Part shown: piece by piece, positions 1,249-15,507 of the stretch | Layout: every line of letters begins with the position of its first letter | Numbering within the stretch: position 1 is the first letter of the stretch | Virus record (IMG/VR): IMGVR_UViG_2778261457_000008 | Location: 1-15,507 of that record | Length of the DNA stretch: 15,507 nucleotides | Strand: one strand, 5' to 3' | DNA from: a virus | Lineage: Duplodnaviria > Heunggongvirae > Uroviricota > Caudoviricetes | Notes under the pieces: generated by a model | What the model was told of the DNA's origin: nothing | What the model saw: the letters and a program-made list of their open reading frames with translations, nothing else | Database searches by the model: none | Made by a program: the position numbers and the translations under genes

Positions 1249-1257
1249 ACGTAAACT

Positions 1258-1301
1258 TTTTCCGGTTGTTGTCGATAGCTCTATATCCCTCAACCGGAAA
1301 A
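1258..1301. repeat. Perfect 11-bp inverted repeat TTTTCCGGTTG / CAACCGGAAAA with 22-bp spacer, 10 bp after the cscB stop
   Basis: Read directly from sequence; no T-run follows, so not a canonical intrinsic terminator. Confidence 0.5.
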
Positions 1302-1689
1302 TAATAATAGTAAAATGCTTAGCCCTGCTAATAATCGCCTAATCCAAACGCCTCATTCATGTTCTGGTACAGTCGCTCAAATGTACTTCAGATGCGCGGT
1401 TCGCTGATTTCCAGGACATTGTCGTCATTCAGTGACCTGTCCCGTGTATCACGGTCCTGCGAATTCATCAAGGAATGCATTGCGGAGTGAAGTATCGAGT
1501 CACGCCATATTTCGCTATCAGGATTCTGTGTGATGGTTACATCGCCCGGCCCAGGGCTGTTTAGTCATCAGCGCTTTCTGACAGTGCTGAGATTTCAACC
1601 TGTTGCAGTAAAAATGAGTAGATATAAGGCAAGTGTGCTGCCAAACCCATCTTTTACGGGGTGAAGGTAGATTTCGTTTGAAGGGTATC

Positions 1690-1704
1690 TGGTGTCCCCT
1701 GCAG
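1690..1704 (-). mobile_element. Attachment-site core: 15 nt equal to a tRNA 3' end (T-stem 3' half, acceptor stem, discriminator, CCA); recalled as argW
   Basis: Minus strand reads CTGCAGGGGACACCA; it lies between the host cscB flank and the first phage gene; no complete tRNA is present in the window. Confidence 0.6.
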
Positions 1705-1777
1705 ACATCTACTTGACGCGGCAGGGGATTGATTAGAATGGTGTTTTTTAGGTGTGAGAAATATTTTACCCGCTATT

Positions 1778-1978
1778 TTACCCATTGGCGCGGCTTAAGA
1801 GCTTATTTTTGAATTCACAATGGTCACGATATAACCATCTTGCTCGCCCGTGGATAACTTTGGCTTTAGGCAGGTCGCCGGACTTAATCCGGTCATAGAT
1901 GAAGGTTTTACCGAAGCCAGTATCGGCCATGATGAATTTCAAATCAACCAGTGAATCAGGCTGTAGTTCGTGTTGCAT
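1778..1978 (-). CDS. torI: Excisionase / recombination directionality factor, AlpA-Xis winged-helix family (TorI-like)
   Basis: 66-aa product MQHELQPDSLVDLKFIMADTGFGKTFIYDRIKSGDLPKAKVIHGRARW…; GGAG 9 nt upstream of this ATG; the track's upstream ATG at 1993 has no SD; position next to att without int matches KplE1-type layout. Confidence 0.7.
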   Translation of the reverse strand: MQHELQPDSLVDLKFIMADTGFGKTFIYDRIKSGDLPKAKVIHGRARWLYRDHCEFKNKLLSRANG

Positions 1979-1995
1979 GAGTGCTATCTCCAAAT

Positions 1996-2013
1996 AGGGA
2001 ATCGAACCTGCAA
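1996..2013 (-). repeat. tRNA T-arm fragment (minus strand TTGCAGGTTCGATTCC) that continues the same tRNA as the 1690-1704 core
   Basis: 16-nt match to variable loop + T-stem 5' half + T-loop; the T-stem 3' half is missing here and is found at 1700-1704. Confidence 0.5.
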
Positions 2014-2020
2014 ATCAGGC

Positions 2021-2043
2021 AATAAAAAACCGCCATCAGGCGG
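2021..2043 (-). terminator. Intrinsic terminator on minus strand (stem CCGCC/GGCGG, loop TGAT, then TTTTTTATT)
   Basis: Hairpin plus U-run read from sequence; overlaps the stop of the 55-aa gene and lies just upstream of torI. Confidence 0.5.
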
Positions 2044-2203
2044 TTTGGTGTTCTTTCAGTTCTTCAATTCGAATATTGGTTACGTCTGCATGTGCTATCT
2101 GCGCCCATATCATCCAGTGGTCATAGCAGTCATTGATGTTCTCTGCTTCGATAACTCTGTTGAATGGTTCTCCATTCCATTCACCTGTGACTCGGAAGTG
2201 CAT
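2036..2203 (-). CDS. Small hypothetical prophage protein (55 aa), missed by the ORF track (<60 aa)
   Basis: ATG at 2203 preceded by GGAG with 7-nt spacing; open frame MHFRVTGEWNGEPFNRVIEAENINDCYDHWMIWAQIAHADVTNIRIEELKEHQTA; terminator follows. Confidence 0.5.
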   Translation of the reverse strand: MHFRVTGEWNGEPFNRVIEAENINDCYDHWMIWAQIAHADVTNIRIEELKEHQTA

Positions 2204-2361
2204 TTATCATCTCCATAAAACAAAACCCGCCGTAGCGAGTTCAGATAAAAGAAATCCCCGCGAGTGCGAGGATTGTTATTGTCTTTTCTTCGTGCATTTG
2301 TCGCACTTTCGGCACCATCCAGATAGGCACATCCGTCCGCAATTAACACATATAGGCCACA

Positions 2362-2643
2362 TCATTTTTCCTCTTTTGGTTTATGAATCTGAATGGTTAT
2401 GCCGCTTTGAGTGGTGACTACAATGACAGAACCAGGCTGAAGACTGTTAAGATTGAATGCTTCGTAAAACGAATCAAAGGCCAGCGCTTTTTTATTCTTT
2501 CGGTTCCACCAACGCCATCCCTTGCTACAGGCTACACTGACAATCCACTGTCCACTCCTGTAAGCCATATAAAACCAGATGAGCAAAACCTGAAGGAAGG
2601 CTATCCAGTCAATAATCGTATATTTCGCGAAGGAGTCCATCAT
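2362..2643 (-). CDS. Hypothetical small membrane protein (93 aa)
   Basis: ATG at 2643 with AGGAGG 4 nt upstream and ATGA overlap with the upstream gene's stop; one clear hydrophobic helix (IIDWIAFLQVLLIWFYMAY); the track's longer start at 2697 would overlap the upstream gene by 58 nt. Confidence 0.5.
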   Translation of the reverse strand: MMDSFAKYTIIDWIAFLQVLLIWFYMAYRSGQWIVSVACSKGWRWWNRKNKKALAFDSFYEAFNLNSLQPGSVIVVTTQSGITIQIHKPKEEK

Positions 2644-3362
2644 TTCGCCTCCTGCGGCGGTTCTGGTAGCGGCATCCAGTGGGTTACTCCATGCCATATA
2701 CCAGTTAAGGTTTCAAACCTTGGCTCTCTGCCTTTCTGTGTCTTGGCATATTCATTCCTTGTATATACGCATTGTCTAACTGCATATCCATTCCATCCAA
2801 TAACTGTTTGTCTAATTTCAGGCATTCGCTCACTACAGCTTATCCAACCATCCGGAGTTACCGGAGAGTTGCCATCCAGCGCGTTCAACTTGTAAGCCTG
2901 GCTTACAGGTTCGGCACTATGAAGCATGGCAGCGCGGCAGGCGTTCCAGCCTTGAACCTTAGCTATTGCCACAACTGCATCGGTAAAGAACATTCTCGCG
3001 GTATCTGGCTCCGGCATTTCATCCGGCACAGCTTGCTGCGGTAACTGTGGTACAGTCAGTGACTCCAATTCAGCGATACGCTTCTCTGCGGCTTCCAGTT
3101 CATCAAGCAGCGCCAAGACGGTAGCCGGATTGGCTGCAGCGATGAATTCAGCATTGGCCTGCTGTTCCATTTGGAAATCTTCATCGAAACCGCTTTCAGG
3201 ATGCGCTCCTTCAATTATGCAAATAGGAAGATATCCAACAACTTCACGATGAATTAGCGCATCACCAGCATCAAGTTTCTCCTCTCCATATTCGAGCGAC
3301 CACACACCACACGTTGCTTTCTCTGCCTTTTCACGCAGTGCCTGATAATCAATCTTGCTCAC
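2640..3362 (-). CDS. Ead/Ea22-like early accessory protein with DUF551-like C-terminus
   Basis: 240 aa; motifs NPATVLALLDELEAAEKR and C-terminal HGVTHWMPLPEPP recalled from Ead/Ea22 and DUF551 families; GTG start with AGGAGG 6 nt upstream, GTGA overlap with upstream gene. Confidence 0.6.
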   Translation of the reverse strand: MSKIDYQALREKAEKATCGVWSLEYGEEKLDAGDALIHREVVGYLPICIIEGAHPESGFDEDFQMEQQANAEFIAAANPATVLALLDELEAAEKRIAELESLTVPQLPQQAVPDEMPEPDTARMFFTDAVVAIAKVQGWNACRAAMLHSAEPVSQAYKLNALDGNSPVTPDGWISCSERMPEIRQTVIGWNGYAVRQCVYTRNEYAKTQKGREPRFETLTGIWHGVTHWMPLPEPPQEAK

Positions 3363-3898
3363 TGGTTGCCTCCTTTGCGAAGCTGGGCGGCGAATTTCTG
3401 TGCCTCTTTCTGGATGAATAGCTTTTCGCTGAAGTTATGGTACTGACCGAACATCTCCACGCCCTGCGCCCGAACTTCAGCCATGAAGGCGTCGGTGGCT
3501 GGGTGCTCTGTCTGGCTATGCATTGCCCATTCAGATAAGTACTCGAAGCAACGGCGAAACTCCTGCCAATCACTGCACATGTTTAGATTTCCGCCTTCAC
3601 ACTCGAACTGGTAATTCTCTAAACGGTCTGCAAACGCTATGCCATTCTCGATGGCACCAAGTGGAATATCAGACTTCATCCCCGCATTCTCTGCCGTAAG
3701 CGCCGCGCACTTGGCCTCAAGGTTATCAATCGTGATTCCAGCAGAACGACACTCCCGCAACGCCGTTTCCAGTTTTGATTCAAGTTCACCGAACTTACGG
3801 ACAAGATATTCAGCGTTTGTTTCGTTAACCTTTAAATCTCGTGGGATGCATTTACCTTTCAGAAAACCATCCATCTCAATTAGTGACATTTGTTTCAT
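3359..3898 (-). CDS. Hypothetical early-left protein (about 179 aa)
   Basis: Long open frame; I place the start at ATG 3898 (GGAG upstream) rather than the track's GTG at 3916, which has no SD; no recognisable domain. Confidence 0.5.
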
Positions 3899-4055
3899 TT
3901 CTTCCCACTCCGCCACATCGCATTCAGATATTTGTTGTCATTAACAGAACCGAAACTCTTTCTCTTAAGCAATTCCTCTCTCGATGGCATTGGCTTTACG
4001 CGTTGGCGAATAATCATTTCTGCCGGAAGAATGCCGGGGTTGTATGCAAGTTCTC

Positions 4056-4346
4056 TCATGATTTACTCTCCACGACCTGGTCAATAGCCATGCTAAGTGA
4101 CATACCTAAAGTTTCGATATGCTGCTGAATATCCTGTAGCGTCTGCGCCTGAGATAACAGGATTTCACGGTTACATAACTCTTTAACCAGATGCTCAAAC
4201 TTGCTGTAATAACCGATACGGCTTAGTGTTTCTTTCCCTGCATTCTCACCTTCTTTGATAATTCCTCTTTCACTAAGAATCAGGTCGTGTTTGGTTCCGG
4301 TAATAACGTATTTGCCGAGGTCGATGTTTAGCTTCATTGTTTTCAT
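4056..4346 (-). CDS. Hypothetical protein (96 aa)
   Basis: ATG at 4346 with GAGGA 7 nt upstream, overlapping the upstream gene's stop; the track's longer N-terminal extension lacks an SD. Confidence 0.45.
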
Positions 4347-4356
4347 TGTTAATTCC

Positions 4357-4650
4357 TCAGTCATTACTGATAGCGCCATAACGTGAGCGGTAATTACGCA
4401 GGCGCGGGTCAATTTCAGGGAAGTGGGTATATGTGGCTTTGCGGAATGGTCGGATTGATGTCTGGTAAATTCGCTCGCGTTCTTCTTTCTCTGCAAGCCA
4501 TATACAGTGGCGAAATTCCTTTTCCTCTTTCGTTTCCTGCGGTAGCGACATTATCAGGTCGTAGTTTTTTCTGAATTTATCCAGCACCTCCGATACGGAA
4601 TTGCCGGAACAGCGGCGCGCGTCGTCCGCACCATACAGAGGCGCTGGCAT
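4357..4650 (-). CDS. Hypothetical protein (97 aa)
   Basis: ATG at 4650 with AGGAG 6 nt upstream; tight packing with neighbours. Confidence 0.55.
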   Translation of the reverse strand: MPAPLYGADDARRCSGNSVSEVLDKFRKNYDLIMSLPQETKEEKEFRHCIWLAEKEERERIYQTSIRPFRKATYTHFPEIDPRLRNYRSRYGAISND

Positions 4651-4663
4651 GATTTTCTCCTGA

Positions 4664-5143
4664 TTAAATTGCGTGAATAGCGTGACGAGGGAAGGGGAGA
4701 GTTACTGGTTCCTCGTCTGGGTAGATAGGTTTGTTATGTTTGTGCCACTCGACATGACATGACTTGCAGAGCCACATCACATCGGTTGGTTTGCTGTAGT
4801 CGCAGTGGTGCGCCTGTGGTTTACATTCTGATCCGCAGCACTCACATTGTGGTGGTCGGATTAGCTTACCGTCGCGCAAAAAATTACCCACAATGATGTG
4901 GGCTTTTCTTTTCCATGGGTTGCTCTGAATGAACCGCTTTTTGGCTGCGTTACACCGTTCTCTTCCGCGTTCCGATGATTGATATTCTCTCCTTGCTGAT
5001 ACTCGATGTGGCAATCCAGCGCGTTCTTTGTCGTATTCAGCCAGGCAAGCCCGGCAAGCGGCAGTTAATCCATCTCTGGATGCTCTTCTGATTTGAAAGT
5101 CCCTTTCTTCCTTCTGTTGATGGCATCTTGAGCAGATTTTCAT
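4664..5143 (-). CDS. HNH endonuclease with N-terminal Cys-rich region
   Basis: 159 aa; C-terminal motif …CECCGSECKPQAHHCDYSKPTDVMWLCKSCHVEWH typical of the HNH fold; AGGAG 6 nt upstream of the ATG. Confidence 0.65.
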   Translation of the reverse strand: MKICSRCHQQKEERDFQIRRASRDGLTAACRACLAEYDKERAGLPHRVSARREYQSSERGRERCNAAKKRFIQSNPWKRKAHIIVGNFLRDGKLIRPPQCECCGSECKPQAHHCDYSKPTDVMWLCKSCHVEWHKHNKPIYPDEEPVTLPFPRHAIHAI

Positions 5144-5152
5144 ATTCAGCTC

Positions 5153-5626
5153 CTAGAACGGAATATCCGAATCGTCGAAGTTCATAGGTGGTTCGCTGTG
5201 ATTTCCCTGCTGCTGAGGTTGCTGTCTTTGTTGCTGACCATTATTTCGCTGAGGTGAAGACTGTTCATTGCCTCCTTGCTTGCCACCAAGCATTTGCATG
5301 GTTCCACCAACGCCCACGATGACTTCGGTAGTGAACCTATCCTGTCCGCTTTGATCCTGCCATTTTCTTGTCCGTAATTTGCCTTCAAGATAAACCTCAG
5401 AGCCTTTTCGCAGATATTCGCTGGCAATTTCTGCCAGTTTCCCGCTCATTACCACACGGTGCCACTCCGTCTGCTCCTTTTGCTCTCCAGTTTGCTTATC
5501 ACGCCATTGTTCTGACGTAGCAACTGTAAGGTTTGCAAATGCCGTTCCTGATGGTGAATATCTGATTTCTGGATCATGCCCAAGGCGACCAATAATGATC
5601 ACCTTATTTACGCCTCTACTTCCCAT
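5153..5626 (-). CDS. ssb: Single-stranded DNA-binding protein
   Basis: 157 aa; OB-fold N-terminus, Gly/Gln-rich linker and acidic tail ending DDSDIPF. Confidence 0.85.
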
Positions 5627-6334
5627 TTATGCCGCCTGTTTTAGTTCGTTAACTCTGATGTTCATTACCTGAACGCATTTAGCCTGCGCCTCCTCGTTGC
5701 CAGCCATTAATTGCCAGTCACGCTGATAACGCTCGATGAGTTTTTTCTTGTCAGTTTCTGTTGACGCATAATCGCTGAAGTCTTTCAGGATTTGTTCGCA
5801 GTCAACCGATGGAGATTTCTGGTTGGTATTTTCTGGTGATGGTTTGTTATCTGATGCTGGGATTGCCCATCCCGGCAGCGATGGAGGGAGCCAGTAAAAT
5901 CCTGTTCCATCCTTCAGTTTTGCCCTGTGCCACCCCTGCTTTTTATCGAGAGATGTTTGTGCGAAACCTTCCTCAAGGTTATACAGATACCGACCGATTC
6001 CCCACTGAACGGCAGCACGCTTCATTGCACCGGAACGACCACCTTTTACGGCTTCTACCTGCGTGTTTTCAGCGGCATCCCATTTGGTTACCCATTCGGA
6101 ATCAATCTTGATTGATATGCCGCATTCAACTCCGCCGTTGTTGGGAATATCGCGGTATTCATTGCGCCATCCTGCTTTGCCGCAAACATCGTCCAGGCGT
6201 TTCATGATTGCCCGGTTCGTGACATAAGCCAGCACCATAGCCCACACCTTGCCATCGCGTGTTTTACCGCTTTGCTGTATTCGCCATTCGATATCTTCAG
6301 GGCTGAATGGCTCATCGAATTTATTCAAATCCAT
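5627..6334 (-). CDS. Rad52/Sak-like single-strand annealing protein (recombinase)
   Basis: 235 aa; pattern …GGRSGAMKRAAVQWGIGRYLY… resembles Rad52-fold annealing proteins; sits in the bet/erf slot beside ssb; GAGGTG 4 nt upstream of ATG. Confidence 0.55.
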   Translation of the reverse strand: MDLNKFDEPFSPEDIEWRIQQSGKTRDGKVWAMVLAYVTNRAIMKRLDDVCGKAGWRNEYRDIPNNGGVECGISIKIDSEWVTKWDAAENTQVEAVKGGRSGAMKRAAVQWGIGRYLYNLEEGFAQTSLDKKQGWHRAKLKDGTGFYWLPPSLPGWAIPASDNKPSPENTNQKSPSVDCEQILKDFSDYASTETDKKKLIERYQRDWQLMAGNEEAQAKCVQVMNIRVNELKQAA

Positions 6335-6342
6335 AATTCACC

Positions 6343-6531
6343 TCAGAATGGTAATTCGGATGGGGAGGAAAGAAATTCGCGCTCATTCATGCGCTCTCTT
6401 TGTGCTTGCCATAAACAAAGTTGTTTCTTTGATTTATCTCCCGCTTTACGCCAGTAACGAGCCTCAGCAATGTGATATTCTCTTTTTAATCGACTTAACT
6501 CTGGAGTTTTCGCCAGCTCTACCGGAATCAT
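6343..6531 (-). CDS. Hypothetical small basic protein (62 aa)
   Basis: ATG at 6531 with GGAGG 5 nt upstream; ATGA overlap with the kil stop. Confidence 0.45.
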   Translation of the reverse strand: MIPVELAKTPELSRLKREYHIAEARYWRKAGDKSKKQLCLWQAQRERMNEREFLSSPSELPF

Positions 6532-6641
6532 TTAGACCTCCATTTTCTGTAGGCTTCGACGGCCTCACGAAACATCTTTTCATCGCCAATAAAAGTGGCG
6601 ATAGTGAATTTAGTCTGAATAGCCATAAGTGTTTTATCCAT
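6528..6641 (-). CDS. kil: Kil-like host-killing / cell-division inhibitor (37 aa)
   Basis: MDKTLMAIQTKFTIATFIGDEKMFREAVEAYRKWRSK matches my recollection of lambda Kil; its ATG overlaps the cIII stop (ATGGATAA). Confidence 0.5.
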   Translation of the reverse strand: MDKTLMAIQTKFTIATFIGDEKMFREAVEAYRKWRSK

Positions 6642-6780
6642 TTTTTGGAACTCCTGGCTGATTAAGTACGTCGATGAGTCGTTTCCATCCGTCACGTAAT
6701 TTACGGGTGATTCGTTCAAGTAAAGATTCATTTAGTTGGAAGGCACCCATGCGAGCGCCTCCCGCGATTGCGTAAATCAT
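6634..6780 (-). CDS. cIII: CIII (FtsH/HflB inhibitor stabilising CII)
   Basis: 48-aa product MIYAIAGGARMGAFQLNESLLERITRKLRDGWKRLIDVLNQPGVPKNG; central helix matches recalled lambda CIII; AAGGAA 6 nt upstream; not in the ORF track, which instead fuses frames into 6528..6731. Confidence 0.6.
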   Translation of the reverse strand: MIYAIAGGARMGAFQLNESLLERITRKLRDGWKRLIDVLNQPGVPKNG

Positions 6781-6804
6781 GGGTGGTTCCTTATGTTGGT
6801 TTTA

Positions 6805-7773
6805 TTAGTAGGTTATTTTTGTTGCGAATACTTCGCCTTTTACGATGGCTGTTATGATATTTTTAGCAACATCTTCTGATGCGCCAACCTTGATAAGGTC
6901 AGCAAGTATTTTGTTATTTACTTCTTTTCGGTGAGCTTTATCCTTTGCTCTACACTCTTCTTCTTCCTTGATTCTTTTTTCTTCTGCTATTCTGGCTTGC
7001 TCTTTTGCTTCAGCCTCGCGCCGGATTCGTTCAGCCTCCTCCTGTGCTTTTCGGCGTTCTGCTTCAATTGCCGCATGCTTTTCTCTTTCAGCTCGTTCTG
7101 CTGCCTCTTTTGCTTCGCGCTGTGCTCGTTGCTCGGCTTCAATGCGTTCACGCTCTGCACGTTCCGCTGCGGCCTTAGCTTCTGCTTCTCGCCTTGCTGC
7201 TGCTTCAATTTCGGCTTTTGCCTTTGCTTCGGCTTCAGCTCTGGCTTTCTCTTCAGCTTCTCTTTTTAAGCGTTCTTCATGCTCTCGCTTTTCCTGCTCC
7301 GCTTTGAGTCTTGCCTCTTCTCTTTGGCGGTCAAATTCGCGATCCATCAAAATCGCTATTTCATGGTCAGACTCAATTTGCTTTGCGAGAGCTTCAGCTG
7401 CTGCCCTAGCTTCTTCTTCGGCTTTAATCCGCGCCTGTTCTTCCTCATAATCAGTAAGAGGCTGGCGTGCCTTGGCTTTCAGCTCATCAAGGCGATCACG
7501 CACTGTCTTGCGGTTGGCATCAATTAGCTTTGGAATTTCCTTCAGTTCAGCAACAAGGTCTTTGCCAAGACCATCGAGATATGTTTTCGTCTGCGCAACT
7601 TTATACGCCAGAGAAGCGATCTCCTTTCTGCCCTTTGCCGTTGTGATATCAGGCACAAAGGACATAACTTCACGTTCAACCTTTTGAAGGATTTCTTCAA
7701 TCTGGCCGGCAGACTGAAATACAGTCATTGCATTTGCTTTTTCAATAACAACTAAATCTGTTACTTCACTCAT
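6805..7773 (-). CDS. Hypothetical phage protein with long Glu/Ala/Arg/Lys-rich coiled-coil (322 aa)
   Basis: ATG at 7773 with GGAGG 4 nt upstream; the track's start at 7827 lies inside the upstream terminator hairpin; about 150 residues of EAKAEAE/RREAE repeats. Confidence 0.6.
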   Translation of the reverse strand: MSEVTDLVVIEKANAMTVFQSAGQIEEILQKVEREVMSFVPDITTAKGRKEIASLAYKVAQTKTYLDGLGKDLVAELKEIPKLIDANRKTVRDRLDELKAKARQPLTDYEEEQARIKAEEEARAAAEALAKQIESDHEIAILMDREFDRQREEARLKAEQEKREHEERLKREAEEKARAEAEAKAKAEIEAAARREAEAKAAAERAERERIEAEQRAQREAKEAAERAEREKHAAIEAERRKAQEEAERIRREAEAKEQARIAEEKRIKEEEECRAKDKAHRKEVNNKILADLIKVGASEDVAKNIITAIVKGEVFATKITY

Positions 7774-7785
7774 ATATCCTCCGTC

Positions 7786-7812
7786 AAAAAAATTGCCCTC
7801 ACACTGGAGGGC
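7786..7812 (-). terminator. tL1-like intrinsic terminator on minus strand (stem GCCCTC/GAGGGC, loop CAGTGT, then AATTTTTTT)
   Basis: Read from sequence; lies just upstream of the coiled-coil gene's SD. Confidence 0.5.
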
Positions 7813-7962
7813 AAAGAAGATTTCCAATAATCAGAACAAGTCGGCTCCTGTTTAGTTACGAGCGACATTGCTCAGTGTATTCACTCGTTGGAATGAATAT
7901 ACAGTGCAGTGTTTATTAGTATGCCTGTCTTTTAACCACATCAGGCTCGGTGGTTCTCGTGT

Positions 7963-8010
7963 ACCCCTACAGCGAGAAATCGGATAAACTCTATTCACCC
8001 CTACAGAGAG
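7963..8010. repeat. Two 14-bp direct repeats ACCCCTACAG(C/A)GAG, 34 bp apart, upstream of sieB
   Basis: 7963-7976 and 7997-8010, 13/14 identical; the second ends 16 bp before the sieB ATG. Confidence 0.4.
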
Positions 8011-8026
8011 CAAAAGAGAAACGCCG

Positions 8027-8608
8027 ATGAACAACTCATGGTGGCAGGAACTAATGCATTTTTTCCTGCAAGGAATGACACTTAAACAGTTGATTCATAT
8101 GCTAATCATCCTAATCATATTGATTATTGTTATGCCTGTAAGCGTAAAAGAATGGATAAACCTGCATAATCCAGAAATCCTTCCTCATTACTGGATGTAT
8201 TACATCCTGTTGTTTTGCGTTAGCTATGTGCTTAACGGCGTTGTTAATTCCGCTTATCACGCTGTGACTGAAAGAATTGAGATATTCGCTGCTCAGAAGC
8301 GCAAATCTAAAGAAGAGAAATACGTGCAAGATTTGTTTGATTCGTTAACTCTTGGAGAAAGAGCGTATTTGGCATTCGCTGTAGCCGCTAATAACCAGCT
8401 AAAGACAGAAAAGGGAAGCCCTGAAGCAATCTCATTGCTCGAAAAAGGGCTTCTTATTCGGGTACCTTCTGCTACTGGATATCCTGAAATCGACCGTTTT
8501 GTTATCCCGGAACGCTATAGAAATGAGTGCTACATTAGGTTTGCTGGGAAGAAAGACAGTCTTATGGATGAACTTATCGCTCAGGATAAGCATGGCAAAA
8601 ACAAGTAA
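8027..8608 (+). CDS. sieB: Superinfection exclusion protein B-like membrane protein
   Basis: 193 aa; N-terminal hydrophobic helices then a soluble domain; opposite strand from its neighbours next to N, as for sieB in lambdoid and Rac prophages; family call is from memory. Confidence 0.55.
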   Translation: MNNSWWQELMHFFLQGMTLKQLIHMLIILIILIIVMPVSVKEWINLHNPEILPHYWMYYILLFCVSYVLNGVVNSAYHAVTERIEIFAAQKRKSKEEKYVQDLFDSLTLGERAYLAFAVAANNQLKTEKGSPEAISLLEKGLLIRVPSATGYPEIDRFVIPERYRNECYIRFAGKKDSLMDELIAQDKHGKNK

Positions 8609-8624
8609 TTAGCAAATTAATTTA

Positions 8625-8897
8625 TCATCTCGCCGTCAGTTGTTTTGATTTCCGGTAGCCTGCCGCGTAAATGGCTACGTTTGGCAGGCAAATACTTCCA
8701 CTGCATTCATCTGCCTTCTTGCAGCGAAGGCTTCCGAGTGATGCTGCTTTGTCTGCTCTGACGCAACCAGAGAGCTTTAGCGCAATTTTTCGCGCCAGTC
8801 GCTGTTCTTGCATTGCCTGCTCACGTTGAGCCTGTCTGCGTGCTCTGCGGCGATTTCTGGCGTTATCGTCAGCCAGATATGTAATGACTACTGCCAT
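8625..8897 (-). CDS. N: Antitermination protein N (P22 gp24-like)
   Basis: 90 aa; N-terminal arginine-rich motif NARNRRRARRQAQRE; C-terminus …YAAGYRKSKQLTAR recalled from P22 gene 24; GGAGG 5 nt upstream; nutL and pL lie upstream. Confidence 0.7.
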   Translation of the reverse strand: MAVVITYLADDNARNRRRARRQAQREQAMQEQRLARKIALKLSGCVRADKAASLGSLRCKKADECSGSICLPNVAIYAAGYRKSKQLTAR

Positions 8898-9004
8898 GTT
8901 GACCTCCGATGATTGACTTTGGCGGTGACGCGCCGGGTGCTTATCTTCCGGTTGCCGTCGTGCAGCTGCACTTCACGTCACCCCAAAGCCAACTACTCTT
9001 TGGT

Positions 9005-9045
9005 TCCCGCATTTCGGCGGGACAATCCCATCAATGTTAAAGAGC
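9005..9045 (-). promoter_or_regulatory. nutL: boxA (GCTCTTTAA) followed by boxB hairpin (CCCGC CGAAAT GCGGG)
   Basis: Read on the minus strand between pL and N; the boxB sequence is identical to the one at nutR. Confidence 0.55.
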
Positions 9046-9091
9046 CTGCCAATCTGTTCCGTTTGGCTACCAGCGTCCTGCTGATGGCTAA

Positions 9092-9132
9092 AGAATACTG
9101 TAGGTATTTTATTGTGTAAATACCCAAGGTAT
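9092..9132 (-). promoter_or_regulatory. pL with OL operators
   Basis: Minus-strand -35 TTTACA (9115-9120) and -10 TATTCT (9092-9097) with 17-bp spacer; operators ATACTGTAGGTAT (9095-9107) and ATACCCAAGGTAT (9120-9132) overlap them. Confidence 0.55.
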
Positions 9133-9265
9133 TTATTTTTGGTGAAATAATGATAAGCAAATGAATACAAAGGATATTTATTTTTTTCGGTGTCTGCTTG
9201 TTCAGTGCTTTTTATGCGGGATATGTGAAGTGGATCCCGATAGCTATTGCTGCCGGGATTATAGG

Positions 9266-9634
9266 TTAGTCAGCGAAGGTTAAGACGAGAATTACCTTAA
9301 TGATGTCTGCTACAACAGACACGGCCATAGATAAACCAAAGACGATCCAAGCCACAGTGATGTCTTCACTACCATCGTATAGAGTTCCGTAATCACTGGT
9401 GTAAGGCGTAAATGTCGCGCCTTGATACAATAGGTATAAGCTTGATCCATAGAGGATAAATGCAGATATCCCTTGTATTGCTATGATCACAAGAATCATG
9501 AAACGAGCTGATCTATGCGCCCAAGCCTGGCTTATTTTTTCTGATAGAGATTTCGCAATAAAAGCATGCGCTAAGCCGTAAATTGTCGAGATTGCCAACA
9601 TCCCAAAAAAGCTTGCTATAGCGGTTCCAACCAT
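9266..9634 (-). CDS. Small integral membrane protein (about 122 aa, about 4 TM) directly downstream of cI, in the rex slot
   Basis: ATG at 9634 with AAGGGG 5 nt upstream, 17 nt after the cI stop; the track's start at 9655 is a TTG overlapping the cI stop; very hydrophobic; no recognisable family. Confidence 0.6.
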   Translation of the reverse strand: MVGTAIASFFGMLAISTIYGLAHAFIAKSLSEKISQAWAHRSARFMILVIIAIQGISAFILYGSSLYLLYQGATFTPYTSDYGTLYDGSEDITVAWIVFGLSMAVSVVADIIKVILVLTFAD

Positions 9635-9651
9635 AAGCGCCCCTTGCGTGA

Positions 9652-10368
9652 TCAAACCAGCCTTAGTTTTGTCTCAATTGCAACGCCTATAATCTTGCAG
9701 TTTCCATTGATTGGCACGAGAGGCCATGCAGGATTAAGTCCCTTGAGGTATTTATTTCCGCCGTCGATTATCAGCTTCTTGAATGTTGCTTCGTTAGAGT
9801 CAGAAAGTTTTGCTATGACCAAGCTGCCGTTGATCGCCTCCCTTCCGGTATCGAAAAGAACGAATGTTCCCTCTGGAATGCTTAACCCAACCGGTGCCGT
9901 CATTGAATCACCTTCCACTTTAAGCCAAAACGCATTACCTTGAATATGCGCGTCAGACTCAAGCCAAACATCTATGTCTTTAATGGTGTATGGTTCGCAT
10001 GCTTCACACCACGAGCCAGCCTGGATACTGCTTAACACCGGATACCTCTTTCCTGCTCTGTATTCCCCTGCATACCTTACGTTGGCATCGCTCTTAAGGC
10101 TTTCTGCCTGTTCTGCAACCTTGGCAGCAATTGACTGGCTAAAATCAGCAATTGAGACTTGCAACAATCGTGCAAAACCAGATGCAACCTCAACGTTTAG
10201 CGCGTTTCTGCCATTAAGATAATGCCCTACCGCTCCTTGGGTGATACCAAGTTCATCAGCGATTGAGTATTGGGTTATTCCCAATTCTTTCTTTTTTGAC
10301 TCATACAAAGCCTTAAGACGCTTAGCGTCTTCGAGCTGTTCTGTCGTCAGTGATTTTTTATTTTCCAT
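9652..10368 (-). CDS. cI: CI-type prophage repressor (HTH + S24 LexA-like autocleavage domain)
   Basis: 238 aa; N-terminus LTTEQLEDAKRLKALYESKKKELGITQ and C-terminal FWLKVEGDSMTAP…FKKL closely parallel lambda CI; divergent from cro across operators. Confidence 0.9.
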   Translation of the reverse strand: MENKKSLTTEQLEDAKRLKALYESKKKELGITQYSIADELGITQGAVGHYLNGRNALNVEVASGFARLLQVSIADFSQSIAAKVAEQAESLKSDANVRYAGEYRAGKRYPVLSSIQAGSWCEACEPYTIKDIDVWLESDAHIQGNAFWLKVEGDSMTAPVGLSIPEGTFVLFDTGREAINGSLVIAKLSDSNEATFKKLIIDGGNKYLKGLNPAWPLVPINGNCKIIGVAIETKLRLV

Positions 10369-10374
10369 AGCTTA

Positions 10375-10445
10375 ATTCTAATAGCTAAGGTACTTAAACT
10401 AAAAATACCCTAAGTATTGATTGCTTTGAATACCTGTAGTATTCT
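10375..10445. promoter_or_regulatory. OR switch: three operators with divergent pR and pRM
   Basis: Operators ATAGCTAAGGTAC (10381-10393, weak), ATACCCTAAGTAT (10405-10417), ATACCTGTAGTAT (10430-10442), centres about 25 bp apart; pR -35 TTGATT (10417-10422) and -10 TATTCT (10440-10445); minus-strand TAGAAT (10375-10380) abutting the cI ATG suggests a leaderless pRM transcript. Confidence 0.6.
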
Positions 10446-10474
10446 TTGTTCATGGTTAATAACGGAGAGTGCAT

Positions 10475-10669
10475 ATGATTCGAATGACACTTGCCGATTA
10501 CGCCAAAATCCATGGACAGGCTAAAGCAGCCAGTGACTTTGGTGTAATCCAGTGCGCTATCAGCAAGGCCATTCTGGCAGGCCGTAACATTATGGTTACG
10601 GTAAAGCCTGATGGCAGTGTGATTGGAGAGGAAGTTCGTCCTTTCCCAAGCAACAAGAAAAACAAATAG
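10475..10669 (+). CDS. cro: Cro repressor
   Basis: 64 aa from the ATG at 10475 (GGAGAG 5 nt upstream); …[40 protein letters not shown] parallels lambda Cro; the track's GTG start at 10469 is too close to the SD. Confidence 0.85.
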
Positions 10670-10675
10670 TAACAC

Positions 10676-10720
10676 CGCTCTTTAACAGTCATGGTCCTCA
10701 TTCCCGCCGAAATGCGGGAA
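10676..10720 (+). promoter_or_regulatory. nutR: boxA (CGCTCTTTAACA) and boxB hairpin (CCCGC CGAAAT GCGGG)
   Basis: Immediately after the cro stop; boxB identical to nutL. Confidence 0.6.
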
Positions 10721-10777
10721 TACAACGCGCACAAGTTGATGCGCATAACTTCTTATTAGTTAAGGAAATACTTACAT

Positions 10778-11056
10778 ATGCAACTTACAAGTACTCGCAA
10801 GAAAGCGAATGCAATTACAAGCAACATCCTGAATCGAATTGCTGTACGTGGTCAGCGAAAGGTTGCCGACGCGTTAGGGATTAATGAATCGCAAATTTCG
10901 CGATGGAAAGACAGCTTCATCCCAAAAATGGGAATGCTTCTGGCTGTTCTTGAATGGGGTGTTGAAGACGAGGAGTTGGCGGAACTGGCTAAGAAAGTAG
11001 CAAGAATGCTGACAAAAGAAAAAGCCCCGAAGAACGGCGAATTCTTCGAGGCCTGA
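10778..11056 (+). CDS. cII: CII transcriptional activator
   Basis: 92 aa; …[39 protein letters not shown] parallels lambda CII. Confidence 0.8.
11014..11052 (-). terminator. oop-like antisense intrinsic terminator overlapping the cII 3' end
   Basis: Minus strand: 11-bp stem with one mismatch (GCCTCGAAGAA / TTCTTCGGGGC), 7-nt loop, then TTTTTCTTTT. Confidence 0.5.
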
Positions 11057-11090
11057 TGTAGAAAGACTGGATCAATCCACAGGAGTAATT

Positions 11091-11237
11091 ATGACAAAAC
11101 AACTCAGTCCTTACCAGGACAAAATTCACAAACACATACTACGTGATCGCTTCCTGTCCAGCTTCAAGCAGCCTGGTCGATTCCGGGCTGAGTTGGAAAA
11201 AGTGAAGCTGATGCAGAAGGAGAAAGGTCATGAGTAA
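11091..11237 (+). CDS. Candidate small basic protein (48 aa) between cII and O
   Basis: ATG with AGGAG 5 nt upstream; no internal stops; overlaps the O start by 8 nt; not in the ORF track (<60 aa); [48 protein letters not shown]. Confidence 0.35.
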
Positions 11238-12090
11238 TCTTGCAACCGTAACACATTTAAGGCCTTCACAACGGCCTGTGGAGCGTCGTGTGGCAGAAGT
11301 TGAAGATGGTTATACCCGTCTTGCAAATGCCCTGTATGAAGAGCTTATCGGCGCTGATTTAACGAAAAATCAGAGCAAGGTTGCCCACGCCATATGCCGT
11401 AAAACATACGGCTACGGTAAAAAGATGGATCGCATCTCTGATAGTCAGTTAGCTCAAATTACCAGGCTGCCAAGACAGAAGGTAAACAAGGCCAAGAATG
11501 AGCTTATCGCGATGAAGGTTATCCTTCGCGAAGGCCAGCAAATCGGGCCTAACAAGAACATCGAGGAATGGCAAATCGAAGGGTGTCACTACTCTGGTGA
11601 TAATGTCACTGCATTGGTGACAAAAAGTGTCACCAAAACGGTGACAGCGCTGTCACCAAAACAGGGACACACAAAAGAAACTATTACAAAAGAAAAAAGA
11701 AATAATAAAAACACTATGTCCGAAAGTGTTCGGACGGAGTGTGAAAAATCACATGACCGTCACGAAGAAACCGACAAGGCATTCGAGGAAATATTCTGGT
11801 GTGCAGGCATGCGGAAAGCCGGGAAGAAAAACGCAGCTTCGGCATTCAGAACACAGTTCAGGGAATGGCGTAAAACTACCAGGGGTACGGCAAGCGAGTT
11901 TGCCACGATGCTGGCAGAAGACATCGCATGCAGGAATGGTAAGCAGTTCGGATTCGACAGGTTGTTACCATCGAGCTACCTGAACGGTCAACGCTGGAAC
12001 GACGAGAAGCCAGAAACTATTCAACCACAATCCAAACCATCATCCGCAATCACCGTATCGAAAACTGGCTACGTGTTTTTCGACAGGTGA
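11230..12090 (+). CDS. O: Replication initiator, lambda O-like N-terminal DNA-binding domain with divergent C-terminal domain
   Basis: 286 aa; N-terminal region (…[14 protein letters not shown]…[40 protein letters not shown]…) parallels lambda O; AAGGAG 7 nt upstream; origin iterons lie inside the gene. Confidence 0.8.
11584..11715. repeat. Replication origin: iterons followed by an AT-rich tract, inside the O gene
   Basis: Palindromic units GGTGACA-N5-TGTCACC (11616-11634) and GGTGACA-N4-TGTCACC (11640-11657), a partial unit at 11596-11610, each followed by AAAAC; AT-rich run 11658-11715. Confidence 0.6.
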
Positions 12091-12093
12091 ACC

Positions 12094-12201
12094 ATGAAAT
12101 CAAAAATCAAATCGCTACTGGTCGCTGGTTATAACCACGGCTGGTTAAGTATTTCGTTTGTAGATTTCTGGTTTAAAAATCTCAATCTGAGGGAATCATG
12201 A
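12094..12201 (+). CDS. Possible 35-aa hydrophobic micro-ORF coupled to the helicase gene
   Basis: ATG 4 nt after the O stop with AGGTG 4 nt upstream; its TGA overlaps the helicase ATG (ATGA); could be chance. Confidence 0.25.
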   Translation: MKSKIKSLLVAGYNHGWLSISFVDFWFKNLNLRES

Positions 12202-14078
12202 GGCCAAGTGAACTTAGCGACCTGCTTTGGGCGCAGGTTGACAGGGTGGCTCCGCACCTGTTGCCAAACGGCAAGAAAGAGGGGCATGAGTGGGTTGCCG
12301 GTAACGTCAACGGTGACAAGGGAAACAGCCTTAAGGTCAACCTTAGCGGCAAGAAAAAATGGGCTGATTTCGCTGAGGGAGACGGCGGTGACATGCTTGA
12401 TTTGTGGATGGCATGTCGTGGAATTAACCTGCATCAGGCTATGCAGGAAGCGAAAGCCTTTCTCGGAATCAAGGATGACGATCACCATTTCGATGCCAAA
12501 CGTGAGAAGAAATTCTCCAGACCTGACCGCAAGAAAATCGCCCGCTACGTTACCAGAACAGAATCCCATCTTGAGTACCTGCAATCGCGTGGCATATCGC
12601 CAGAAGTCGTAAAGCGCTACGAGGTTGTCAGCGGCAAGGTGTGGAATGGAGAACGAGAACTTGATGCACTGGTGCTTCCGTACAAACGCGATGGTGAGTT
12701 GTTGCAGGTCAAGCGAATCAGCACTGAGCGCCCGGACGGGAAGAAAGTCATTATGGCAGAAGGTGATTGTGAACCTTGTCTGTTCGGATGGCAGGCTCTG
12801 GACGCTGGCGTGAGGGCGGTTGTACTTTGCGAAGGCGAAATTGATTGTATGAGCTATGCGCAATACGGCATCTCGGCGTTATCCGTGCCGTTTGGTGGCG
12901 GGAAAGGCGCTAAGCAACAGTGGATTGAGTTTGAGTATCACAATCTCGACAGGTTTGAGGAAATATTCATCTCGATGGACGTTGATGATGTTGGTCGTGA
13001 AGCCGCAATGGAAATCGCAAGCCGACTCGGTGAACATCGTTGCCGTCTTGTTACTCTGCCGTACAAAGACATCAACGAATGCCTGATGAACGGTGTTACC
13101 GAGGATGAAATCTGGCAGTACATCGGCACGGCATCCTACTTCGATCCTGAAGAACTCTACAGTGCGCGAGAGTTTTACCAGGACACTATCAACGCTTTCT
13201 ACGGCAAGCAGCAATATCTGTTTAATCCACCGTGGGAATCTCTGGCAGATAAATTCCAGTTCCGTGAGGCAGAGTTGACGCTGGTCAATGGTGTGAACGG
13301 TCACGGAAAAACGGAGGTTGTCGGGCATATGGCACTTGAGGCAATGCGTCAGGGTGTGAAGACGTGCATCGCGTCACTTGAGCTGAAGCCAGGCATTCTC
13401 CTTAAGCGACTTACCCGTCAGGCGACGTGCTGCAAGATGCCGCCAGTGCTGGAAATTGACTCTGCATTTAAATTTTATGACGAAAGACTTTGGGTGTTTG
13501 GCCTGACCGGAACGGCGAAAGCCGACAGGCTGATCGAAATATTCGACTACGCTCGCCGCCGATACGGGATCCAGTTATTCATCATCGACAGCCTGATGAA
13601 ATGTGGCATAGGCGACGATGACTATAACGGGCAGAAGGCGTTTGTTGACTCGATTTGCGACTTCAAAAACAAAACAAACTCCCACGTCATTCTCGTTACT
13701 CACTCGCGAAAAGGAGACAGCGAAGAAAAACCAACCGGGAAAATGGACGTAAAAGGCTCTGGAGCGATAACAGACCTGACAGACAACCTTTTCATCATCT
13801 GGCGTAACAAGGCTCGCGAGAGAGCGTTACAGAGAGTTCAGAGTGGTGAAAAGATGTCAGAGAAGGACGAACAGTTACTGGCATCTCCGGCATCTGTTTT
13901 GATGCTTGAAAAACAACGTAACGGCGAAGGTTGGGAAGGTGGTGTCCCGTTGTTCCTTGACGAGCAATCGCACCAGTTCCTGCAACTTGAATCAGGATCG
14001 CCATATAGCTACATCGCCAATATGCCGAAATCGGAATATGACGAGGCGTGGCGACAGGAAAACGTGACGGAGTATTAA
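12198..14078 (+). CDS. Bifunctional DNA primase/helicase (Toprim primase domain + DnaB/RecA-like P-loop helicase)
   Basis: 626 aa; Toprim-like VLCEGEIDCMS and ISMDVDDVG; Walker A GVNGHGKTE, Walker B FIIDSLMK, then ILVTHSRKG; occupies the lambda P slot. Confidence 0.8.
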   Translation: MRPSELSDLLWAQVDRVAPHLLPNGKKEGHEWVAGNVNGDKGNSLKVNLSGKKKWADFAEGDGGDMLDLWMACRGINLHQAMQEAKAFLGIKDDDHHFDAKREKKFSRPDRKKIARYVTRTESHLEYLQSRGISPEVVKRYEVVSGKVWNGERELDALVLPYKRDGELLQVKRISTERPDGKKVIMAEGDCEPCLFGWQALDAGVRAVVLCEGEIDCMSYAQYGISALSVPFGGGKGAKQQWIEFEYHNLDRFEEIFISMDVDDVGREAAMEIASRLGEHRCRLVTLPYKDINECLMNGVTEDEIWQYIGTASYFDPEELYSAREFYQDTINAFYGKQQYLFNPPWESLADKFQFREAELTLVNGVNGHGKTEVVGHMALEAMRQGVKTCIASLELKPGILLKRLTRQATCCKMPPVLEIDSAFKFYDERLWVFGLTGTAKADRLIEIFDYARRRYGIQLFIIDSLMKCGIGDDDYNGQKAFVDSICDFKNKTNSHVILVTHSRKGDSEEKPTGKMDVKGSGAITDLTDNLFIIWRNKARERALQRVQSGEKMSEKDEQLLASPASVLMLEKQRNGEGWEGGVPLFLDEQSHQFLQLESGSPYSYIANMPKSEYDEAWRQENVTEY

Positions 14079-14109
14079 ATGACCATCTACATCACTGAGC
14101 TAATAACAG

Positions 14110-14136
14110 GGGCTATTTACACAGTAGCCCTTTTTT
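14110..14136 (+). terminator. tR2-like intrinsic terminator between the replication genes and the nin region
   Basis: Stem GGGCTA/TAGCCC with 9-nt loop followed by TTTTTT. Confidence 0.6.
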
Positions 14137-14163
14137 ATTGGATTAAGAACGAGGGGGATCCTG

Positions 14164-14376
14164 ATGGACACCGTTAACGGAATGTGTTCAGACGCACCGC
14201 GTGCCAAAAAATGTAAATGCGGAAAATCACCGACAATATTCGACATGGAGAACGGGTGCCAAATCTACTGCGCTAACCACGCCGCTGTGGCGGCCGCGAA
14301 TTATCGCAGTGCGGTAACGGAGTGGAATAACCTGAAATCTGTTAGAGAGGGAAGTCATGAAAAAACTAACCTTTGA
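14164..14376 (+). CDS. Small Cys-rich (zinc-ribbon-like) nin-region protein
   Basis: 70 aa with CKCG…GCQIYC cysteine pairs; AGGGGG 6 nt upstream; its 3' end overlaps the ninB start by 20 nt; possibly Lar-like, not confirmed. Confidence 0.5.
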   Translation: MDTVNGMCSDAPRAKKCKCGKSPTIFDMENGCQIYCANHAAVAAANYRSAVTEWNNLKSVREGSHEKTNL

Positions 14377-14797
14377 AATTCGATCTCCAGTACATCAGCA
14401 AAACGCTATTCACGCAGTACAGCAAATCCTTCCAGACCCAACAAAACCAATCGTAGTAACCATTCAGGAGCGCAACCGCAGCTTAGACCAAAATCGGAAG
14501 CTTTGGGCTTGCCTTGGTGACGTTTCGCGTCAGGTTGAATGGCATGGTCGCTGGCTGGATGCAGAAAGCTGGAAGTGTGTGTTTACCGCAGCATTAAAGC
14601 AGCAGGACGTTGTTCCTAACCTTGCCGGGAATGGCTTTGTGGTAATAGGCCAGTCAACCAGCAGGATGCGTGTAGGCGAATTTGCGGAGCTATTAGAGCT
14701 TATACAGGCATTCGGTACAGAGCGTGGCGTTAAGTGGTCAGACGAAGCGAGACTGGCTCTTGAGTGGAAAGCGAGATGGGGAGATCGGGCTGCATGA
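14357..14797 (+). CDS. ninB: NinB (Orf) recombination mediator
   Basis: 146 aa; essentially the lambda NinB sequence as I recall it ([72 protein letters not shown]…). Confidence 0.85.
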
Positions 14798-15507
14798 TAA
14801 ATGTCGTTAGTTTCTCCGGTGGCAGGACGTCAGCATATTTGCTCTGGCTAATGGAGCAAAAGCGACAGGCAGGTGAAGACGTGCATTACGTTTTCATGGA
14901 TACAGGGGCAGAGCACCCTAAAACATATGAGTTCATCCGAAATATCGTCAGTAACTGGAAAATAGACTTACATTGCCTTCGTGTAATACCTAATCCAGAA
15001 ATGGGGAAGGCCAGTAGTTATGAAGAGATAGGTGTCAATGATATTGGTCCAGATCTTATACCGTGGAAAAGGATGTTGAATAAATACGGACATCCATATA
15101 TCGGCGGTGCGTTCTGTACCGACAGAATGAAGTCTGTTCCATTCACCAAATATTGTCAGGAAAAGTTTGGGAAAGGAAATTTCATCACATGGCTTGGCAT
15201 TCGCACAGATGAACCAAACAGGCTTAAAAGGGCTAATGGTTTTCGGTACCTGGCTGATATAAGCGATTTTGAAAAACAGGATGTGCTTGATTGGTGGAGT
15301 GAGCAGAAGTTTGATCTTGGCATACAGGAGCATCTTGGTAATTGTGTTTTCTGCATAAAAAAAAGTATGCAAAAGGTGGCGCTGGCAGCCATGGATGAGC
15401 CAGAACTTGCAGATGCATTTATCAACATCCTTGATACAGAAATAAAAACAGGAAAGGTAGACTGGCCCCCTGAATCTCCAGACAACCAATATCACTTAAA
15501 TAAGTGA
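14794..15507 (+). CDS. PP-loop ATP pyrophosphatase / PAPS-reductase-like protein (NinC-position)
   Basis: ATG at 14794 overlaps the ninB stop (ATGA); product begins [15 protein letters not shown], a P-loop-like SGGxxS signature; 237 aa; stop is the last codon of the window. Confidence 0.65.

Follow-up and report, generated by a model that had tools for sequence, protein, structure and literature searches.

Results

The Immunity Region and the Position of hkaS

The window analysed here is a stretch of 15,507 nucleotides (nt) from a Caudoviricetes virus (IMG/VR record IMGVR_UViG_2778261457_000008, positions 1 to 15,507), and our subject is the small gene that lies on its minus strand directly behind the cI repressor gene. 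A preliminary description of this open reading frame (ORF) had considered it possibly undescribed; it is, in fact, hkaS of coliphage HK620 (AAK28867), known since 2001, whose product is annotated "unknown" and shares 99% protein identity with that of the window gene. The protein is held in RefSeq as WP_000233126.1, a hypothetical protein, and matches PHROG 6534, a family annotated as of unknown function, over residues 1-122 of 122 (E 2.4e-79). The ORF is thus already on record, and an anti-phage role, as post-repressor prophage cargo, would be the new part.

The repressor gene (9652..10368, minus strand) encodes a protein with HTH_3 and Peptidase_S24 domains (Pfam) and is the first gene of a presumed pRM operon; the repressor is 100% identical to that of mEpX2 and at least 99% identical to those of 15 other phage records, HK620 among them. 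Three AATACCnnnnGTATT palindromes in the pRM/pR region (10380-10394, 10404-10418 and 10429-10443) correspond to the operators that HK620 annotates as OR1-3, and palindromes at 9094-9108 and 9119-9133, with a weaker one at 9164-9178, to its OL1-3, which form the left boundary of the immunity region. A pattern search with AATACCnnnnGTATT returned 18 matches, where 3.2 were expected, and these group at OR and OL. The pL promoter annotated in HK620 has its counterpart in a pL-like promoter on the minus strand (9120-9092, TTTACA-17-TATTCT), and the first gene of the pL operon, on the far side of the slot, encodes the N antiterminator (8625..8897, minus strand; Pfam N_peptide, E 2e-15). Between cI and OL/pL, inside the OL-OR immunity region, sits hkaS, in the position that rexAB holds in lambda, as had been proposed.

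The ORF occupies 9266..9655 on the minus strand and lies 17 nt behind the repressor gene, with an in-frame TTG (9655-9653) that overlaps the TGA stop of cI (9654-9652), as inspection of the sequence shows; these coordinates and this spacing agree with the preliminary description. Two products can be read from it, one of 129 residues from the TTG and one of 122 residues from the ATG at 9634-9632. The TTG start was ruled out, since the Salmonella homologues carry an in-frame TAA right before the ATG; the distant homologues all begin at the ATG methionine. Sequence comparison thus indicates that the ATG form is the real HkaS, with the coding sequence at 9266..9634 (122 residues and a TAA stop at 9268-9266 in the ORF list), which is predicted to specify an inner-membrane protein with three transmembrane (TM) helices. 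The spacer between the two genes (9635..9651, minus strand) is too short for a promoter or a terminator and contains a Shine-Dalgarno (SD) sequence, AAGGGG, at 9640..9645, 5 nt 5' of the ATG. In all homologous loci, AAGGA or GAGGG is found at the equivalent site and the spacer measures 17-20 nt. The G+C content is 42% for hkaS and 45% for cI, with no foreign signature, and Rfam and tRNA scans of the window gave no matches.

The end of the cI-hkaS transcript is ambiguous. A hairpin just past the hkaS stop (9234..9259, minus strand; stem of 7+3 bp by RNA folding) is the sole good one beyond the gene, yet it has no U tract, and the terminator scan was negative there; whether it acts as a terminator is uncertain. 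The tIMM terminator of the HK620 authors maps downstream of hkaS, at about 9153-9183 in the window, a stretch that overlaps the third operator-like palindrome, AATATCCTTTGTATT (9164-9178, one mismatch to the consensus).

Linkage of hkaS to the Repressor

Nine homologous loci (L003-L010 and L041), from Salmonella, metagenomes and Buttiauxella, were fetched, and all nine have the same arrangement of cI, a short gap with an SD sequence, and hkaS. Eight of these loci are annotated, and in seven of them the gene that follows hkaS has a Pfam match to the N family (N_peptide or N36); in L005 it is an unannotated 90-residue ORF, and L041 has no gene calls. This strict linkage is explained by the location of hkaS inside the immunity region, which is sufficient on its own.

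The locus from an uncultured Buttiauxella (L041:2501-3543) encodes a repressor with an unrelated N-terminal helix-turn-helix domain and a C-terminal S24 domain that is about 90% identical to that of the window cI, followed by an hkaS homologue whose product is 57% identical to HkaS. This domain swap implies that recombination has taken place within cI, at a point between the two domains of the repressor, so that hkaS stays linked to the 3' half of cI rather than to operator specificity. Repressors with the same C-terminal domain also occur with other cargo or none (BHUENT3, L033-L038; 65-67% identity overall), which ruled out a functional dependence of this domain on HkaS. In a prophage of E. 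coli SRY149 the flanks are 98% identical to the window, but the repressor is different and so is the small ORF in the slot. Taken at the level of sequence, these comparisons indicate that hkaS is accessory cargo of the immunity module.

hkaS Is a Gene under Purifying Selection

The ratio of nonsynonymous to synonymous divergence (dN/dS) of hkaS is 0.14-0.20, with synonymous sites saturated in the deeper pairs, and homologues at 52-98% identity preserve the frame, length and start of HkaS. The length, the start and 43 invariant residues are common to five lineages (E. coli, Hafnia, Salmonella and the metagenome (Logan) sequences P0011 and P0012), and the Buttiauxella protein has the same length and start and most of the 43 residues. 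Because the homologues keep frame, length and start and dN/dS is low, hkaS is more than a chance ORF; by these measures it is a genuine gene under purifying selection. It changes faster than its neighbour, with a dN 4-5 times that of the adjoining repressor gene: the values for hkaS and cI are 0.093 and 0.022 in the closest pair, and 0.33 and 0.085 in a deeper one.

Some copies are disrupted. In HF4s, a plaque-forming phage, the loss of 1 nt from an A6 run (window 9535-9540; locus L096) shifts the frame of hkaS after TM1, and hkaS is therefore dispensable for lytic growth. The clusters P0006, P0007 and P0009 have scrambled HkaS N-terminal regions. These disrupted copies could be due to sequencing error, decay or slip-strand switching.

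HkaS Is Predicted to Span the Membrane Three Times

HkaS is strongly hydrophobic (grand average of hydropathy +0.98), in agreement with the preliminary description, which had also assigned it four TM helices. Hydropathy reveals three hydrophobic spans, at about residues 2-27, 45-72 and 93-121, and a confident AlphaFold model built with seven sequences (mean predicted local distance difference test score 92, predicted template modelling score 0.79) places helices at 2-29, 31-38, 41-73 and 89-121. Residues 78-86 form a small beta-hairpin in the model. The helix at 31-38 is short, amphipathic and cytoplasmic. Hydropathy and the model together ruled out the four-TM topology, and HkaS is modelled as a protein with three TM helices. 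Because loop 1 is basic (K28, K33, R41, R44) and loop 2 acidic (D81, D87, E90, D91), the positive-inside rule predicts an N-out/C-in topology, with loop 1 inside and loop 2 outside. The parts predicted to protrude from the membrane are tiny: the cytoplasmic loop has 17 residues, the periplasmic hairpin 20 and the tail 9.

Conservation is unevenly distributed over these parts. The C-terminal tail ILVLTFAD is 89% invariant, the cytoplasmic loop KISQAWAHRxARF 53%, and the periplasmic loop is lowest at 20%; within the helices Q54 (TM2), D110 and K113 (TM3), and also S65 and Y67, are invariant.

HkaS Is an Orphan of Enterobacterales Prophages

Residues 1-120 of HkaS are 97.5-100% identical in HK620, HK630, HK140, mEpX2 and ten other phage records, and 91% identical in HF4s. 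The whole N-hkaS-cI stretch of 1.8 kb is 98-99% identical to HK620, HK630, HK140, mEpX2 and others. Sixteen phage records carry hkaS, the very same 16 whose cI is at least 99% identical to that of the window, and they span P22-like podoviruses, lambda-like siphoviruses and Shiga toxin (Stx) phages. Among 5,426 complete E. coli genomes, 146 carry hkaS, always on the chromosome.

When 5.8 billion proteins were searched by word index, 12 HkaS clusters were obtained, all of them near relatives and all from Enterobacterales; from 1.84 billion representatives, a profile search retrieved the HkaS family itself and one 44-residue fragment. The absence of a recognisable family, noted earlier, was borne out: Pfam (E up to 1) gave only a sub-threshold match to TssN (E 0.03), NCBIfam and a sequence search of the PDB gave none, none of the 5,027 models of PADLOC-DB 2.0 matched (E up to 1), and PHROGs beyond the protein's own family yielded two sub-threshold matches to unrelated families (E 0.21 and 0.34). 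Fold searches retrieved generic helical bundles only. No match was found by tblastn on 72,556 plasmids, and the protein searches found no relatives outside prophage immunity modules. A literature search by gene name, accessions, phage names and rex slot found no functional work on hkaS. On the evidence of these searches, HkaS is a sequence orphan restricted to Enterobacterales prophages.

Cargo of the Slot behind cI in Sister Prophages

With the cI protein as query, 80 loci were fetched from species-representative genomes, and the post-cI genes were listed for the 34 closest (L016-L048 and L073, region ~3200-4700 of each locus). Clear PADLOC matches were obtained in the slot at 5 of the 15 loci scanned, behind repressors 64-76% identical to the window cI. 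In Siccibacter colletis (L017; cI 76%) the slot carries RexA (E 1.7e-109) followed by a 144-residue protein with four TM helices that is identical to lambda RexB over its first 44 residues; this rexA-rexB cassette lies at L017:3324-4613 on contig NZ_JMSQ01000026.1. Two Lonsdalea loci hold BstA (L020; cI 69%; E 1.2e-115) and PDC-S42 (L024; cI 68%), two Proteus loci with cI at 65% hold PDC-M53A/B (L028) and PDC-M63A/B (L029), and a Pantoea locus (L073; cI 71%) holds an ImmA/capP-like peptidase cassette. In phage 434 the slot is occupied by hex, a repressor-protection gene, and in Serratia phage OS31 it is empty.

The interval between cI and N has been described as a mosaic hotspot with rexAB and bstA, and bstA, downstream of cI, is highly expressed in lysogens, where the repressor promoter is highly active (PMC8585504). 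The survey thus upheld the expectation that other lambdoid prophages keep exclusion or abortive-infection genes in this slot. As read from the sequences, the post-cI slot swaps RexAB, BstA and several candidate systems within one repressor lineage. We take the slot content as a real prior, not as proof, for hkaS being anti-phage cargo.

Several other slots hold unannotated cargo, comprising three genes in L018 and single proteins of 260 residues with four TM helices (L019), 256 residues (L023), 376 residues (L027), 298 residues (L036), 409 residues with four TM helices (L039) and 177 residues (L042), which are worth screening as possible defence candidates.

Discussion

Proposed Function of HkaS

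Taking into consideration that: (i) hkaS has its own SD sequence and begins 17 nt behind cI with no promoter or terminator between them, (ii) related repressor genes are followed by anti-phage cargo; it is reasonable to regard HkaS as a candidate phage-exclusion protein. As the second gene of the repressor operon, hkaS would by its position be expressed from pRM in every lysogen, and from pRE as well during establishment; its translation may be coupled to that of cI, as had been suggested. The reading that we favour, to which we give a probability of roughly 40%, is that HkaS is a lysogen-expressed superinfection-exclusion protein of the inner membrane. It would protect the lysogen against heteroimmune phages by constitutively blocking genome entry at the inner membrane, where it may interfere with the entry conduit; alternatively, its target could be a host inner-membrane component used by incoming phages. 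P22 SieA, HK97 gp15 and T4 Imm would be the precedents for such action. Constitutive exclusion is favoured over triggered suicide because HkaS has no soluble sensor domain and hkaS no partner gene. The variable periplasmic loop and the fast dN of hkaS fit a fast-evolving surface that faces incoming phage proteins.

Several observations weigh against exclusion. The literature yields no hkaS phenotype, and sequence and fold searches link HkaS to no exclusion protein. Location is only a prior, for the same slot also holds the non-defence Hex of 434 and many unknowns, and is empty in OS31. The best-conserved parts of the model face the cytoplasm, and would also suit cI, FtsH or a transporter as partner; the faster evolution of hkaS may come from the looser constraint that small membrane proteins typically experience. 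Given its frequency among the E. coli genomes, the family is also very narrow, whereas a wider spread would be expected of a defence gene with broad use.

Alternative Explanations

The position in the rexAB slot could also point to an abortive-infection effector, in which HkaS oligomers would form a minimal Rex-like channel that depolarises the membrane upon infection with no RexA-type partner. The slot also houses BstA and two-gene cassettes with a four-TM second protein (PDC-M53B), the invariant intrahelical Q54, S65, Y67, D110 and K113 are of the kind expected at a pore or an oligomer interface, and the N-out/C-in layout, similar to that of class I holins, fits as well. Such a channel is nevertheless improbable: it would have no sensor, as the 17-residue loop and the 9-residue tail are all that faces the cytoplasm; there is no partner gene and no homology to RexB (hhalign probability 0.7%); and a constitutive pore former would need tight control, of which none is visible. 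Also unlikely, though a little less so, is a broader proposal that HkaS represents a new family of self-sufficient three-helix defence proteins, being either a minimal channel of the Rex type that needs no RexA, detects infection via the membrane and aborts it, or a plug of the entry conduit against heteroimmune phages. If this were true, recognition and action would both fall to a single protein of 122 residues that has hardly any mass outside the membrane.

The conserved cytoplasmic surface, made up of the loop and the C-terminal tail, bears on two explanations outside defence. HkaS might modulate the lysis-lysogeny switch by acting on repressor stability or induction. Of the repressors retrieved, the nearest that has been well studied is the cI of 434 (52% identity), whose stop is overlapped by hex in the same slot; 434 Hex protects its repressor from RecA-mediated cleavage. 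Two-hybrid data suggest a RexB-CI contact and a role of Rex in the transition to lytic growth (bioRxiv 10.1101/2021.04.19.439022), and the contact provides a further precedent. The Buttiauxella hkaS, too, stays with the cI cleavage/dimerisation domain despite the swapped DNA-binding domain. Against this, the pairing of the same C-terminal domain with other cargo or none means that HkaS is not needed by it, adjacency inside the immunity region explains the linkage, and HkaS is unrelated to Hex (hhalign probability 0.1%), which is a signal-peptide protein and not polytopic; we consider a switch modulator doubtful. In a host-directed lysogenic conversion, HkaS would instead tune an inner-membrane transporter, a protease or a stress pathway, or confer immunity to a toxin such as a pore-forming colicin. 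In size and three-TM build HkaS resembles small regulatory membrane proteins and E1-type colicin immunity proteins, its invariant cytoplasmic tail looks like a docking motif, and expression would be expected in every lysogen from the position of the gene. This is unlikely, as Pfam gave no match to colicin-immunity or small-regulator families, no relatives were detected on the plasmids or outside prophage immunity modules, and the identifiable cargo of the slot is anti-phage. That hkaS is a functionless passenger trapped between cI and OL can scarcely be believed: its position in the immunity region guarantees co-inheritance and HF4s as well as clusters P0006, P0007 and P0009 have frameshifted copies, but such a passenger is contradicted by dN/dS, by the preserved length, start and SD sequence, and by the invariant residues shared across lineages. 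We leave a small share for some function other than those listed here.

If an exclusion or abortive role were true, HkaS would add an orphan single-gene membrane family to the prophage defences. To our knowledge, the mechanism of the genome-entry block is still unresolved for SieA, HK97 gp15 and Imm, and if exclusion by HkaS were true, this protein of 122 residues, with its confidently predicted structure, the invariant D110 and K113 and the C-terminal tail, would be a very small model for a block of genome entry at the inner membrane. If, on the other hand, HkaS had no anti-phage role, control of repressor stability or of the host membrane would explain the retention of hkaS beside cI over saturated synonymous divergence.

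Other Features of the Prophage

Just beyond N, on the opposite strand, lies a gene for a SieB homologue (8027-8608, plus strand; PF14163, E 1e-25), and the prophage therefore already has one recognised abortive or exclusion gene beside its immunity region. Farther along the pL operon, between cIII/kil and sieB, a minus-strand ORF (6805-7827) specifies a protein of 340 residues with a long, repetitive middle extremely rich in Glu, Ala, Arg and Lys; it has no Pfam match, and a related genome labels the corresponding product 'cell envelope biogenesis protein TolA'. The window starts with a host gene for a LacY-family oligosaccharide transporter of the major facilitator superfamily (1-1248). Past the transporter, the first 2,700 positions (1-2700) contain short ORFs only, including a homologue of TorI-like excisionases at about 1778-1993 (minus strand), and no integrase gene was found between the host transporter gene and the early-left genes of the prophage. 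The replication module combines a lambda-O-like initiator (11230-12090) with a primase-helicase of 626 residues that joins Toprim and DnaB-like domains (12198-14078, plus strand), not a lambda-P-type loader, and this pairing is another sign of prophage mosaicism.

Comparison with Known Systems

The defence systems found behind related repressors share the slot with HkaS and differ from it in kind. BstA, PDC-S42, PDC-M53 and PDC-M63 occupy the equivalent position behind cI proteins 64-69% identical to that of the window, but they are larger, mostly soluble or two-gene systems with no sequence similarity to HkaS. The 434 hex gene likewise follows a related cI directly, overlapping its 3' end, and is co-expressed with the repressor; its product, however, is a protein of 134 residues that starts with a signal-like segment and is hydrophilic in its body, whereas HkaS is polytopic. 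Pore-forming colicin immunity proteins are matched neither in Pfam nor on the plasmids. Class I holins have a similar three-TM, N-out/C-in layout, but the C-terminus of HkaS is the hydrophobic ILVLTFAD and not a highly charged one; moreover, class I holins sit in the lysis cassette and hkaS in the immunity region, which indicates that HkaS is not a class I holin.

Among exclusion proteins, T4 Imm, HK97 gp15 and the other catalogued ones gave no Pfam or PHROG match to HkaS, and HkaS does not match Pfam SieB (PF14163). P22 SieA resides in the inner membrane and is a protein of 162-164 residues with three TM helices and a conserved cytoplasmic motif (PMC10883804). As is presumed for HkaS, it is a single small inner-membrane protein expressed from a prophage, with three predicted TM helices and its best-conserved motif in the cytoplasm; its gene, unlike hkaS, is found in the late/immI region instead of behind the repressor and is served by a promoter of its own, and SieA is known to block DNA delivery. 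The two are not detectably related (hhalign probability 0.3%), and the motif FxRYPxEAxxFNK is absent from HkaS.

Lambda RexB, which with RexA makes up an abortive-infection system, shares with HkaS the slot between cI and OL, presumed co-transcription from pRM and the character of a small polytopic inner-membrane protein. It differs in that it has four TM helices and both its termini are cytoplasmic, against three and an outside N-terminus predicted for HkaS, and the comparison with RexB that had been proposed excluded homology, with no PADLOC RexB match either. Lambda also has rexA, while hkaS has no RexA-like partner, with cI directly before it and OL/pL directly after, and, unlike lambda rex, it leaves no room for an internal pLIT-like promoter. 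HK620, finally, has the same gene in the same cI-hkaS-OL/pL-N order, and differs in that the window copy belongs to an E. coli chromosomal prophage with other flanking modules.

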